A stretch of DNA of 4,719 nucleotides. Origin: a virus. Lineage: Duplodnaviria > Heunggongvirae > Uroviricota > Caudoviricetes. Position 1 is the stretch's first letter. Each line of letters opens with the position of its first letter. The position numbers were made by a program, and so were the translations under genes. The stretch lies in IMG/VR virus record IMGVR_UViG_2778261151_000015, one strand, 5' to 3'. Positions 2,053 to 4,719 of this stretch are shown one piece after another. The notes beneath the pieces were generated by a model. That model was not told where the DNA came from, ran no database searches, and saw nothing but the letters and a program-made list of their open reading frames with translations.

Positions 2053-2175
2053 TTATCCCCATCGACAAATCGAGTACACAACAAACGCTACTGCGAATAC
2101 CATCCCCAGAGTTACGATTGCATCAGGCCAGCTCATTGATTCACCTCCTGCGGCGTCCTGGTATTCGATTTTCAT
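2053..2175 (-). CDS. Small hydrophobic membrane peptide (40 aa from ATG 2175; alternative 27-aa start at ATG 2136)
   Basis: Hand-translated: MKIEYQDAAGGESMSWPDAIVTLGMVFAVAFVVYSICRWG. ATG at 2175-2173 overlaps the TGA of the clamp-like gene (ATGA). The internal ATG at 2136 has a near-consensus SD (AGGAGGT, 6-nt spacer). One predicted TM helix (AIVTLGMVFAVAFVVYSI). Confidence 0.45.
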   Translation of the reverse strand: MKIEYQDAAGGESMSWPDAIVTLGMVFAVAFVVYSICRWG

Positions 2176-2741
2176 TCCGGATGCTCCTGAGCCACGTTGA
2201 AATCGCCATGATCACGACAAGGCATCACAACAAATTCAGGATTGCCATACATTGAGTTGATGATGGAATCAAACTGAATTCTGACCGCTTGCCCGTCACC
2301 GGAGGGACGTAACTGGACGGGAATAAATTTACGCTCACGACCAAACATCTTCTCTGGATAACTCAGGTAACCCGCCTGGAGCACCGGGTGAGTACAGCGG
2401 TCAAACTTTTTCGGAATGATGCGATCCAAATCCGGAAAACAACCGTCCACCAGTTTAATGCCGGTAATGGACAGTCGTCGCTGAAACTGGTCGCGATGAA
2501 CAGCGATCGGCTCTTTACTAAAAATCAGCTCTGTCGTTTCGGCTTTGGCCGGGACGCCCCCTTCGAACTGGACAATGATGTTTTTCTTCGTCCGGATGCC
2601 GTGAGCCATGCGCAGTGCCACGGAACCATTGGTTGCCTCAATATGTTTCGGCGTGATGTGAAGACCGTTCAGGTAATAACGAACGTCGTTTTTAGCAGCG
2701 CACACCAGAGCGGCGCGAATAAGTTTTGACTGGATGATCAT
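2172..2741 (-). CDS. DnaN-like protein: truncated DNA polymerase III beta sliding-clamp homologue (189 aa)
   Basis: Motifs match E. coli DnaN domains II-III as I recall them: DVRYYLNGLHI (DnaN DVRYYLNGMLF), KLVDGCFPDLDRIIPKK (DnaN KLVDGRFPDYRRVLPKN), C-terminal EFVVMPCR (DnaN AYVVMPMRL). About half the length of DnaN (366 aa). ATG at 2741-2739 overlaps the stop of the upstream gene; SD GGGAGG 7 nt upstream. Confidence 0.75.
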   Translation of the reverse strand: MIIQSKLIRAALVCAAKNDVRYYLNGLHITPKHIEATNGSVALRMAHGIRTKKNIIVQFEGGVPAKAETTELIFSKEPIAVHRDQFQRRLSITGIKLVDGCFPDLDRIIPKKFDRCTHPVLQAGYLSYPEKMFGRERKFIPVQLRPSGDGQAVRIQFDSIINSMYGNPEFVVMPCRDHGDFNVAQEHPE

Positions 2742-3530: not shown

Positions 3531-4361
3531 TTACTTAACCTGAATAAATGGTGTGTTGGCACCGCTGGTCATGTACTGCGGCAGTGTGCCGTTCCATTTA
3601 TTGATGGCTTCCAGCTCCATAACACCGGGGTTCTGGCGCAGAGCTTCACCGCGTAAACGAATTGCATCGGCTTCGGCCTGGGCTTTTGTGCGAATCGCAT
3701 CAGCCTGTCCGGCAGCTTCTGCACGCAGCATGTTGGCTTCTGCTTCGCGTTGTTTAACTTCCTGCTCGCGTTGCAGTGTTTTCTGGTTTGCCGTGACTTT
3801 GGCGTTAATGCTGTCGATAACGGTTGGTGGGTACTCTGGCTTACCCACATATGAGAGGCTCATTACCTGAATACCGATGGGTGTCATTTCTTCCTGGATG
3901 TCTTTTAGAGCGGCATCCAGTAATTCAGATTTACCGCCGTCAATAAATTTGTCGGTGGTCATTTTGCTGGCCAGCCGATTGAGTGCGTCGGCGATCTTCT
4001 GGCGCAGGTCTGTATCGGTAATGTCATCCACGCCTTTGCGGTAGGTCTGAAATACCGTGGTAACTTTCGATGGATCAACCTTATAGGCCACGCCGATGTG
4101 ATAACCGATGGTTGTGCCGTCGCTCATCTGGAAGCTGAATGGATCATCGTAGATCTTCATTTGTTTGAAGGTCGGGAAAATGTAAACTTCAGTATTCCAG
4201 CCAGTCCAGTAGCGACCAACACCGACCACCTCACCGACACCTTTGTCGTCGCCCAGTTTGTTGACTTTGATACCCACATTACCTGGTTCAACGCGATCGC
4301 AACCTACAAGTCCGAAGACAGCCAGACTGACCGCGAAAACAAGCGCAATTGTTTTTTTCAT
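3531..4361 (-). CDS. SPFH (band 7 / prohibitin / flotillin-like) domain lipoprotein
   Basis: 276-aa ORF. N-terminal lipoprotein signal with lipobox (MKKTIALVFAVSLAVFGLVG|C). Central SPFH-like region followed by a Glu/Ala-rich coiled-coil (REQEVKQREAEANMLRAEAAGQADAIRTKAQAEADAIRLRGEA) typical of HflK/HflC/flotillin-type proteins. ATG at 4361-4359 overlaps the TGA of the upstream small ORF (ATGA). Confidence 0.8.
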   Translation of the reverse strand: MKKTIALVFAVSLAVFGLVGCDRVEPGNVGIKVNKLGDDKGVGEVVGVGRYWTGWNTEVYIFPTFKQMKIYDDPFSFQMSDGTTIGYHIGVAYKVDPSKVTTVFQTYRKGVDDITDTDLRQKIADALNRLASKMTTDKFIDGGKSELLDAALKDIQEEMTPIGIQVMSLSYVGKPEYPPTVIDSINAKVTANQKTLQREQEVKQREAEANMLRAEAAGQADAIRTKAQAEADAIRLRGEALRQNPGVMELEAINKWNGTLPQYMTSGANTPFIQVK

Positions 4362-4546
4362 TTTTCCCTCCCGGGGAAAGAAAGACCCTTATAAATGGCA
4401 TAAATGCAGGGCGGGGTCAGACACGCCAGAGCAAAGCCAGAAATCACTGCTACCGTATCCTTCATTGATATGAGGGCCGGAACGATTAATCCGTAAATAC
4501 ATGCGATAATTGCCAGTGATATAACTATTCTGAAATAAATGTTCAT
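4358..4546 (-). CDS. Small two-TM membrane protein (62 aa), partner of the SPFH lipoprotein
   Basis: Two hydrophobic helices (FRIVISLAIIACIYGLIVPALIS and VAVISGFALACLTPPCIYAIY) separated by a short polar loop. SD AGGAGG just upstream of the ATG at 4546-4544. Stop overlaps the SPFH start. Confidence 0.6.
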   Translation of the reverse strand: MNIYFRIVISLAIIACIYGLIVPALISMKDTVAVISGFALACLTPPCIYAIYKGLSFPGREK

Positions 4547-4572
4547 GGTCCTCCTGATGTATTCGGCTTGCC

Positions 4573-4595
4573 GGTAATGACTCCAACTTACTGAT
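4573..4595. repeat. IS1 terminal inverted repeat (IRR)
   Basis: GGTAATGACTCCAACTTACTGAT matches the ~23-bp IS1 right inverted repeat with one substitution relative to the K-12 copy as recalled. Confidence 0.8.
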
Positions 4596-4719
4596 AGTGT
4601 TTTATGTTCAGATAATGCCCGATGACCTTGTCATGCAGCTCCACCGATTTTGAGAACGACAGTGACTTCCGTCCCAGCCTTGCCAGATGTTGTCTCAGAT
4701 TCAGATTATGTCGCTCAAT
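4588..4719 (-). CDS. insB: IS1 transposase InsB, C-terminal fragment (partial; 5' end outside window)
   Basis: Minus-strand translation from the window edge gives [43 protein letters not shown], matching the known InsB C-terminus. Stop TAA at 4590-4588, immediately inside the IRR. Confidence 0.8.

Follow-up and report, generated by a model that had tools for sequence, protein, structure and literature searches.

Whether the narrow interval between a gene for a clamp-like protein and a DUF4222 gene codes for a protein of its own, and if so in which form and with what role, is the question raised by a 4,719-nucleotide (nt) stretch of a Caudoviricetes virus, the IMG/VR record IMGVR_UViG_2778261151_000015 (hereafter the window, meaning the whole stretch). 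A sequence-only reading had proposed that this interval holds a translationally coupled hydrophobic micro-peptide, 27-40 amino acids (aa) long with one transmembrane (TM) helix, which had been missed in the list of open reading frames (ORFs). The comparative sequence evidence presented here shows that the interval holds a genuine phage microprotein gene, conserved and for the most part unannotated, which is widespread in Shiga toxin (Stx) phages and other lambdoid phages of Escherichia coli.

Two sets of relatives were assembled. The first comprises 80 IMG/VR loci that were fetched with the DUF4222 protein as the sole bait, and the second 120 further loci recovered with a degenerate DNA pattern built on the motifs at the two ends of the peptide. 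A 27-codon ORF is found upstream of DUF4222 in all 80 loci of the first set, preceded by several unrelated sequences; it is intact in 79 of them, and the remaining one has an extra G in a G-run. Across all loci then gathered, the family numbers 201 hits with 54 distinct DNA sequences and 33 distinct peptides, all intact, for which the consensus is M-[TSN]-W-P-[ED]-A-F-x-x-V-G-I-A-M-A-V-A-L-V-V-Y-S-I-C-R-W-G. W3-P4 and A6 are invariant in the family, F7 is almost so, and aromatic residues lie near both ends. Likewise, at least 80% of the peptide is covered in 93 of the 95 phage records that match it in tblastn.

The pattern of substitution in these variants is that of a protein-coding frame. 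Entropy is highest at the third codon position (0.70, as against 0.34 at the first and 0.24 at the second), and the ratio of nonsynonymous to synonymous substitution rates (dN/dS, or omega) is 0.29 in frame, while the two alternative sense frames give 1.07 and 1.99. Pairwise values range from 0.17 to 0.7 and are below 1 for every pair. The window and phage BP-4795 differ at 27 of 84 nt (32%; dS 1.32, dN 0.31, omega 0.24) with the hydrophobic core kept; for comparison, omega between the same two genomes is 0.11 for DUF4222 and 0.06 for the 44-aa ORF beyond it. Simulation of random substitutions gives a probability of about 0.002-0.01 for an intact hydrophobic ORF at 27 differences in 84 nt. For the more diverged pairs, substitution at the same density would leave start, stop, open frame and an equal hydrophobicity in place with a chance of 0.002-0.03, which reaches 0.07 at most among the closest pairs. 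Thus the frame, an excess of synonymous change, the start, the Shine-Dalgarno (SD) sequence and the stop are all conserved across diverged relatives, as purifying selection predicts. The check that the sequence-only reading had itself proposed, namely frame conservation and synonymous bias across related prophages, is therefore positive, and its central claim of a real gene for a hydrophobic single-TM micro-peptide is upheld. That the locus encodes a real small protein may be regarded as very probable on these comparisons.

Several points weigh against this conclusion and have to be set beside it. The support is comparative, translation being deduced from the sequence. The pattern-based collection is biased toward intact in-frame copies, and the dN/dS values obtained from it are optimistic. 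When only the helix core, which the pattern leaves unconstrained, is considered, dN/dS is 0.42 in frame versus 0.58 and 1.73 in the other frames, a modest gap; a weaker signal is expected there because I, V, L, M, F and A can stand in for one another in the helix. Some antisense frames are open in most variants. The peptide has no match in the supplement of a ribosome profiling (Ribo-seq) paper on small genes of enterohemorrhagic E. coli Sakai, from which ORFs shorter than 30 aa were excluded. It was likewise not matched in the supplement of 'The Cryptic Bacterial Microproteome', and a full-text literature search with peptide strings found no paper. In E. coli K-12 the check covered the Rac and Qin prophages, not DLP12 or e14, and neither of the two has a homologue; hence the K-12 small-protein literature is not applicable to it.

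Two other kinds of element were considered for the same nucleotides and rejected. A structured RNA is not supported, as the fold of the region is less stable than that of shuffled controls (z = +1.87) and an Rfam search returned no relevant match, antisense and small RNA families included. A gene on the opposite strand was rejected because the antisense frames lie against established genes and are without a conserved start or SD.

The genomic contexts of the ORF, counted in the 120 pattern-ascertained loci, are diverse. The preceding gene is of the DUF551 type in 53, ends in …SVEDILR in 30, ends in …DDRQEVNQ in 11, and is a clamp-like gene followed by a DUF551 remnant, as in the window, in only 6 (other in 20); the family thus has at least four unrelated upstream gene types. 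On the downstream side there is a hok/gef-like locus in 45, DUF4222 in 40, a terminator-like hairpin in 13, a gene starting MGKITFV… in 8 and other sequence in 14. In VT2-Sakai, ArgO145 and vB_EcoS-613R10 the ORF overlaps the preceding stop and is the last one before a hok/gef locus or an intrinsic terminator. The exact bridging of two larger genes, which had been offered as an argument that the ORF is real, accordingly carries no weight as such, since the same ORF has other neighbors and is often the last gene before a terminator.

This diversity also bears on the notion that there is no functional protein, the stretch being a spacer in which the SD and short ORF have no role but to pass translation on to DUF4222 or to hold ribosomes on the mRNA. 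In its favor, just 4 nt separate the stop from the DUF4222 ATG, and GGGGA in the last codons could be the DUF4222 SD. However, 80 of the 120 loci are without DUF4222 downstream, many of them ending in terminators, and keep the same peptide including its C-terminus; as the terminal RWG is retained without a following gene, its conservation is not merely that of an SD for DUF4222. Moreover, the substitutions conserve amino acids and hydrophobicity, and distant relatives keep a WP(D/E)AF-helix-R/K design with different DNA. A pure spacer is hence hardly credible.

As to which form of the protein is selected, the evidence converges on the internal ATG (Table 1). An ATGA at this start is present in 201 of 201 hits, with codon 2 being only AGC, ACC or AAT, and an SD precedes it in all 120 pattern-ascertained loci (GGAGG or better in 111). 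In BP-4795, VT2-Sakai, ArgO145 and 613R10 the TGA within this ATGA is the stop of the upstream gene, and the same holds for the DUF551-type upstream frame. This start/stop overlap is a hallmark of the family and is located at the internal ATG. The earlier description of the window, with an ATGA overlap at the clamp-like stop and a near-perfect internal SD, was accurate, and the translational coupling that it proposed is real; what it mislocated is the conserved overlap, which is that of the internal ATG and not the one with the clamp-like gene. The homologue in BP-4795, MMNWPEAFTAVGVAIAVAFILYSLFRWG, lies between the DUF551 and DUF4222 genes of that phage, and it resembles the window from a point some 25 nt ahead of the internal ATG (...CGCCGCAGGAGGTGAA), not from the start of the 40-aa form. 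We therefore consider it quite likely that the selected product is the 27-aa form.

The origin of the 13 additional codons can be traced. In the commonest context the DUF551-type gene upstream ends ...CTACCAGAACCGCCGCAGGAGGTGAATCAATGA (…PLPEPPQEVNQ, then stop). What the window retains is TACCAGGA-CGCCGCAGGAGGTGAATCAATGA, in which one base of the DUF551-type sequence is missing and which is fused to the end of the clamp-like gene; the residues YQDAAGGES are hence derived from a DUF551-type 3' leftover. The extension is then probably a by-product of the recombination that joined the clamp-like gene to this leftover. It is missing from all other upstream contexts and specific to the clamp-like-gene lineage, in which it is identical among relatives even where the body of the ORF is replaced. 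AlphaFold2 gives it a predicted local distance difference test (pLDDT) score of about 57 and no secondary structure. Probably it is not selected as protein.

It is nevertheless conceivable that the 40-aa protein starting at 2175, as called by the Prokaryotic Genome Annotation Pipeline (PGAP), is the functional product and that its 13 N-terminal residues matter. Its ATG overlaps the clamp-like stop, has AGGAG 8 nt upstream and opens a frame that PGAP calls in four records, and the extension is identical in all clamp-context relatives; with an SD and a stop-start overlap of its own, this form could predominate in the window prophage, which counts against our preference for the shorter one. Against this, no other context of the family has the extension, which is encoded by the DUF551-type leftover, 13 open codons arise by chance about half the time (estimated as ~(61/64)^13), and the model of the extension is of low pLDDT and unstructured. 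Comparable extensions elsewhere look like products of longest-ORF calling, and identity among the clamp-context relatives reflects recent common ancestry and is no test of selection. The 40-aa form as the functional product is accordingly improbable, even if the window prophage may also make it as an isoform from ATG 2175 beside the favored 27-aa peptide.

The family is also variable in a manner that suggests exchange between phages. When E. coli A34 is compared with the window, the ORF body differs by 25% and the flanks by 0-11% (Fisher p = 1e-6), the adjoining flanks being identical. This island of divergence looks like an allele replacement via the conserved gene ends. An alternative is diversifying selection on a superinfection-exclusion or anti-defence factor, which would block entry of DNA from competing phages or counter a membrane-bound host system; besides the island, the many alleles and the moron-like position at operon ends before terminators are in line with it. 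Yet no pair has a dN/dS as high as 1, an exchange of alleles among mosaic phages explains the island equally well, no promoter was detected for expression in the lysogen and there is no PADLOC match, so that this role appears rather improbable.

With a 98-nt query, matches were obtained in 1025 of 5426 complete E. coli genomes (~19%), at 1-5 places per genome and 1312 places in total, 150 of them on plasmids. Several of the plasmid copies lie after a DUF551 gene on replicons of about 94-98 kb, which may be phage-plasmids. A strict pattern scan with one genome per species recovered E. coli, Shigella flexneri and an Escherichia sp. The scan also hit Vibrio twice, by chance, and three very short contigs with other taxonomic assignments, which seem to be contaminants. 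Profile searches added sporadic entries from E. coli, E. albertii, Shigella and Salmonella, named 'hypothetical' or 'bacteriophage protein', and more distant metagenome relatives that keep the WP(D/E)AF-helix-R/K design. The latter sit in arrays of tiny co-directional genes, in some cases with 4-nt overlaps. Decayed forms are rare and consist of frameshifts, internal duplications and a Hok fusion. This last (P0109) is an in-frame fusion of the N-terminal half of the peptide to the C-terminal half of Hok, presumably formed via a deletion.

The predicted single TM helix holds up in two kinds of prediction. The Kyte-Doolittle profile with a 19-residue window peaks at 2.42 over AIVTLGMVFAVAFVVYSIC, and AlphaFold2 models one helix over residues 16-39 of the 40-aa form, with pLDDT 93-97 in the TM segment (codons 6-24 of the 27-codon ORF). 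The helix has no polar or charged residues. Among 50 family members position 5 is D or E in all 50 and position 25 is R or K in 49, and this asymmetry is kept in distant relatives. From these models the peptide is very likely to be membrane-inserted, and by the positive-inside rule it probably adopts an N-out/C-in orientation in the inner membrane, with D/E5 periplasmic and R/K25 cytoplasmic. A lipoprotein or secreted peptide was rejected, as the N-terminus is acidic without K or R and the cysteine, C24, is not invariant, some variants having F, V, M, Y or N in its place.

Searches of Pfam, NCBIfam, PHROGs and PADLOC with the 40-aa form and the 27-aa variants gave nothing significant, and the best sub-threshold scores were those of phrog_4612 (E 0.019), KdpF (TIGR02115, E 0.024) and the DUF883_C glycine zipper (E 0.04-0.06). 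The functional classes to which such a peptide might belong can be compared by architecture and context. The sequence-only reading had suggested a type I toxin-like, Kil-like or holin-like agent, and neither context nor similarity lends support to any of these classes.

The peptide resembles the type I toxins (Hok/Gef, TisB, DinQ, ShoB, Ibs, Ldr) in being a short hydrophobic inner-membrane peptide of the kind often borne by prophages. Instead of the own transcription unit with an antisense RNA that characterizes such toxins, its gene overlaps or abuts co-directional neighbors and is translationally coupled within a polycistronic operon. In place of structure-restrained translation or an occluded SD, it has a strong and accessible SD in a region that folds less stably than shuffled sequence. 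No known toxin family was matched in Pfam, NCBIfam, PHROG or PADLOC. With respect to holins and antiholins, the gene is not in a late lysis cassette beside endolysin and spanin genes, the neighbors in the window being int, xis, DUF4222, the clamp-like gene, ORF6N and SPFH and those in other phages being early-region or nin-region genes; the charged and mostly basic C-terminal tail of holins is also lacking, with just RWG after the helix. No homology to the host division inhibitors Kil, KilR or DicB was detected in Pfam, NCBIfam or PHROGs, and the Rac and Qin regions of K-12, where kilR and dicB are located, contain no match.

An agent that damages the membrane, as a toxin or lysis helper of the type I toxin, holin or antiholin kind, and so kills or permeabilizes the host once the early operon is expressed, would nonetheless accord with some features: the size and hydrophobicity are like those generally known for TisB, DinQ, ShoB and Ibs, a hok/gef-like locus follows immediately after the gene in 45 of the 120 loci, a natural fusion to the C-terminal half of Hok exists, and the ladder of small residues in the helix could support self-association. 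On the other hand, a helix without charged residues offers nothing obvious for lining a pore, the strong SD is unmasked with no RNA fold able to gate translation, and neither an own promoter nor a matching antisense RNA family was detected. The gene is not beside an endolysin or in a lysis cassette, and no Hok, holin or toxin family is matched. It also persists intact in roughly 19% of the complete E. coli genomes, with degraded prophages and plasmids among its locations and up to five places per genome. A toxin or lysis helper is thus unlikely.

The closest likeness in design is to a different class. AcrZ, MgtS, KdpF, PmrR, CydX and SgrT are small single-pass regulators in E. coli, of less than 50 aa, that were missed by gene callers and act through helix-helix contacts. 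The peptide, with 27 aa and one helix, has the size and single-TM architecture of small regulatory membrane proteins, which are a functional class and not a homology family. Like regulators of the AcrZ, MgtS and KdpF type it has fewer than 50 aa, one hydrophobic helix and almost nothing outside the membrane; unlike them it is phage-borne, in an early operon and not beside a cognate transporter or sensor, and there is no significant sequence relationship. A second, purely design-level analogy is with the Pf3 coat protein, a virion structural protein of a filamentous phage that is inserted N-out/C-in through YidC. The two share an acidic N-terminal tail and one helix followed by an R-W motif, with no homology and a different context.

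Taken as a whole, the best explanation, which we favor by a modest degree, is that the ORF encodes a 27-aa early inner-membrane modulator peptide. Ribosomes would load at the AGGAGGT and, in most relatives, could also reinitiate through the ATGA after termination of the upstream gene. By analogy with the pL-driven exo-xis region, expression would be early after infection or induction. The interfacial WP(D/E)AF motif and the small-residue ladder (A6, G11, A13, A15, A17) could then pack against other membrane helices, the likeliest partner being an inner-membrane protein of host or phage on which the peptide would act as a modulator, in the manner of AcrZ, MgtS or KdpF. Four observations make such a modulator more likely than a lethal pore: there are no polar residues to line a pore, translation is not gated, the gene lies within an operon and is not a toxin-antitoxin unit of its own, and it persists intact in several copies in many genomes. 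The modulator-type mechanism itself is put forward tentatively; two points tell against it, namely that composition and analogy are its whole basis and that the analysis of helical periodicity in the conservation yielded no clean single face.

The setting of the ORF in the window is summarized in Table 1. What the window covers is the int-side end of a lambdoid E. coli prophage integrated beside mlrA (yehV), and strain RMDEC364 has a counterpart beside mlrA with 99.9% identity to it (1151 nt compared). All genes are on the minus strand and directed towards int. As no minus-strand promoter-like site was found within the window and its scan showed no terminator-like site near the small ORF, the latter lies inside a polycistronic unit.

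Table 1. Features of the 4,719-nt window, in the order of transcription (all on the minus strand)
Feature	Coordinates	Strand	Remarks
62-aa membrane protein	4546→4358	-	
SPFH lipoprotein	4361→3531	-	276 aa
ORF6N protein	3487→2738	-	PGAP start ATG 3487, 249 aa
Clamp-like gene	2741→2172	-	189 aa; PGAP: beta clamp domain-containing protein; directly upstream of the small ORF
SD AGGAG of the upstream ATG	2184..2188	-	8-nt spacer; 40-aa isoform plausible
ATGA of upstream ATG (2175-2173) and clamp-like TGA (2174-2172)	2172..2175	-	start/stop overlap
Small ORF, 40 codons	2175→2053	-	MKIEYQDAAGGESMSWPDAIVTLGMVFAVAFVVYSICRWG
13-codon N-terminal extension of the 40-aa form	2137..2175	-	MKIEYQDAAGGES; lineage-specific
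DUF551-type 3' remnant	2137..2163	-	TACCAGGA-CGCCGCAGGAGGTGAATCA; carries the SD; from alignment with BP-4795 and DUF551-type contexts
SD AGGAGGT	2149-2143	-	6-nt spacer to the internal ATG
Internal ATG	2136-2134	-	start of the 27-codon ORF
ATGA at the conserved start	2133..2136	-	family-wide; in most relatives the start/stop overlap with the upstream gene
Conserved 27-codon ORF and stop	2053..2136	-	MSWPDAIVTLGMVFAVAFVVYSICRWG, then stop; core gene of the family; 84 nt including stop
Predicted TM helix, codons 6-24	2065..2121	-	AIVTLGMVFAVAFVVYSIC; small residues A6, G11, A13, A15, A17 conserved
TAA stop	2055-2053	-	4 nt before the DUF4222 ATG (2048)
DUF4222 gene	2048→1806	-	Pfam PF13973, E 1.3e-15; neighbor in the window lineage, not an obligate partner
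44-aa ORF	1802→1668	-	
xis	1649→1395	-	
int	1361→75	-	

Some of the neighboring genes deserve comment in their own right. The end of an IS1 occupies the window from about 4555 to 4719 and adjoins the 62-aa membrane-protein gene; in the otherwise near-identical RMDEC364 prophage further phage genes, including one for a ParE-like toxin, are found at this position, and the prophage copy in the window has therefore been interrupted. The genes for the SPFH/Band-7 lipoprotein and the 62-aa protein, which is two-helix-like, overlap by 4 nt (3531-4546, minus strand). Their arrangement resembles a pair of the SPFH-NfeD type carried as a moron (phrog_1130, 'membrane protein'), and no PADLOC match was found for the pair. 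The ORF6N gene starts at GTG 3562 in the mechanical list of ORFs (274 aa, overlapping the end of the SPFH gene) and at ATG 3487 in PGAP. The clamp-like protein is, with its 189 aa, roughly half a clamp protomer, and its match to Pfam DNA_pol3_beta_2 is sub-threshold (E 0.007); it strongly matches PHROG 3007, whose label 'RusA-like Holliday junction resolvase' looks wrong. The 44-aa ORF between DUF4222 and xis is Cys/His-rich (...CREIVKRMFEVWCHCRG) and conserved (phrog_3871, E 3e-32), with the omega versus BP-4795 given above (0.06), and it may bind zinc.

The earlier statement that the peptide was missed by annotation is correct in part. The 40-aa form is called by recent PGAP as the 'hypothetical protein' WP_255625547.1 (three RefSeq records) and WP_021501359.1 (one record), while the ORF is unannotated in two RefSeq records examined and in BP-4795, VT2-Sakai, ArgO145 and vB_EcoS-613R10. 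Similarly, in most of the matches shown for the 98-nt query the upstream gene is the sole annotated feature under the match. Prodigal has a minimum gene length of 90 nt, and the 27-codon ORF with its stop (84 nt) falls below it. The 40-aa and longer calls are probably N-terminally over-extended; in other database entries with N-terminal extensions, for instance METVTLDAATRTAAGGES-MSWPE…, the frame stays open back into the upstream gene. Fragments of 25-39 aa of the peptide (P0010, P0011, P0017, P0018, P0031) bear the NCBI name 'DUF551 domain-containing protein, partial'. Since the peptide is a separate out-of-frame ORF, this naming is an annotation error, and it can propagate.

By its position in the string of genes towards xis and int, the small ORF belongs to the exo-xis region. 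In lambda and Stx phages this region is pL-driven, transcribed early and non-essential, and it reportedly contains genes that regulate whether development is lytic or lysogenic (PMC10834534). The peptide shares with orf60a, orf61, orf63, orf73, ea22 and ea8.5 the location between the recombination genes and xis/int, and often it directly follows DUF551-type genes (53 of 120 loci), DUF551 being the C-terminal signature of the Ea22_V2 variant (PMC10834534). It differs from the described exo-xis proteins, which are soluble, in being a hydrophobic TM peptide; a review that models exo-xis proteins never uses the word transmembrane (PMC8614690). This raises the speculative and rather doubtful possibility that it is a functional exo-xis member of the Stx phages (933W family, VT2-Sakai, BP-4795) acting from the inner membrane, where it might influence lysis-lysogeny or induction, and hence Stx, or exclude competing phages. 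It could do so by binding a host membrane protein, candidates being the FtsH/HflKC protease system or a component for DNA entry or transport.

Small hydrophobic phage proteins are a recognized and poorly charted class, of which this one is unusually well supported by comparison. It is carried by about one fifth of complete E. coli genomes, and in the records examined it is unannotated in the medically important Stx phages, the genomes of which have been studied for 25 years. For annotation, the DUF551 naming of the fragments calls for correction, and so, probably, does the start of the 40-aa and longer calls. For phage biology, the exo-xis placement makes the peptide a candidate for a phenotype in the choice between lytic and lysogenic development, and if it is indeed a functional member of that region, then its cassette-like allelic diversity would reflect an arms race. 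Even if the peptide does nothing measurable, the SD, ATGA overlap and micro-ORF would still represent a portable unit that moves between phage operons.

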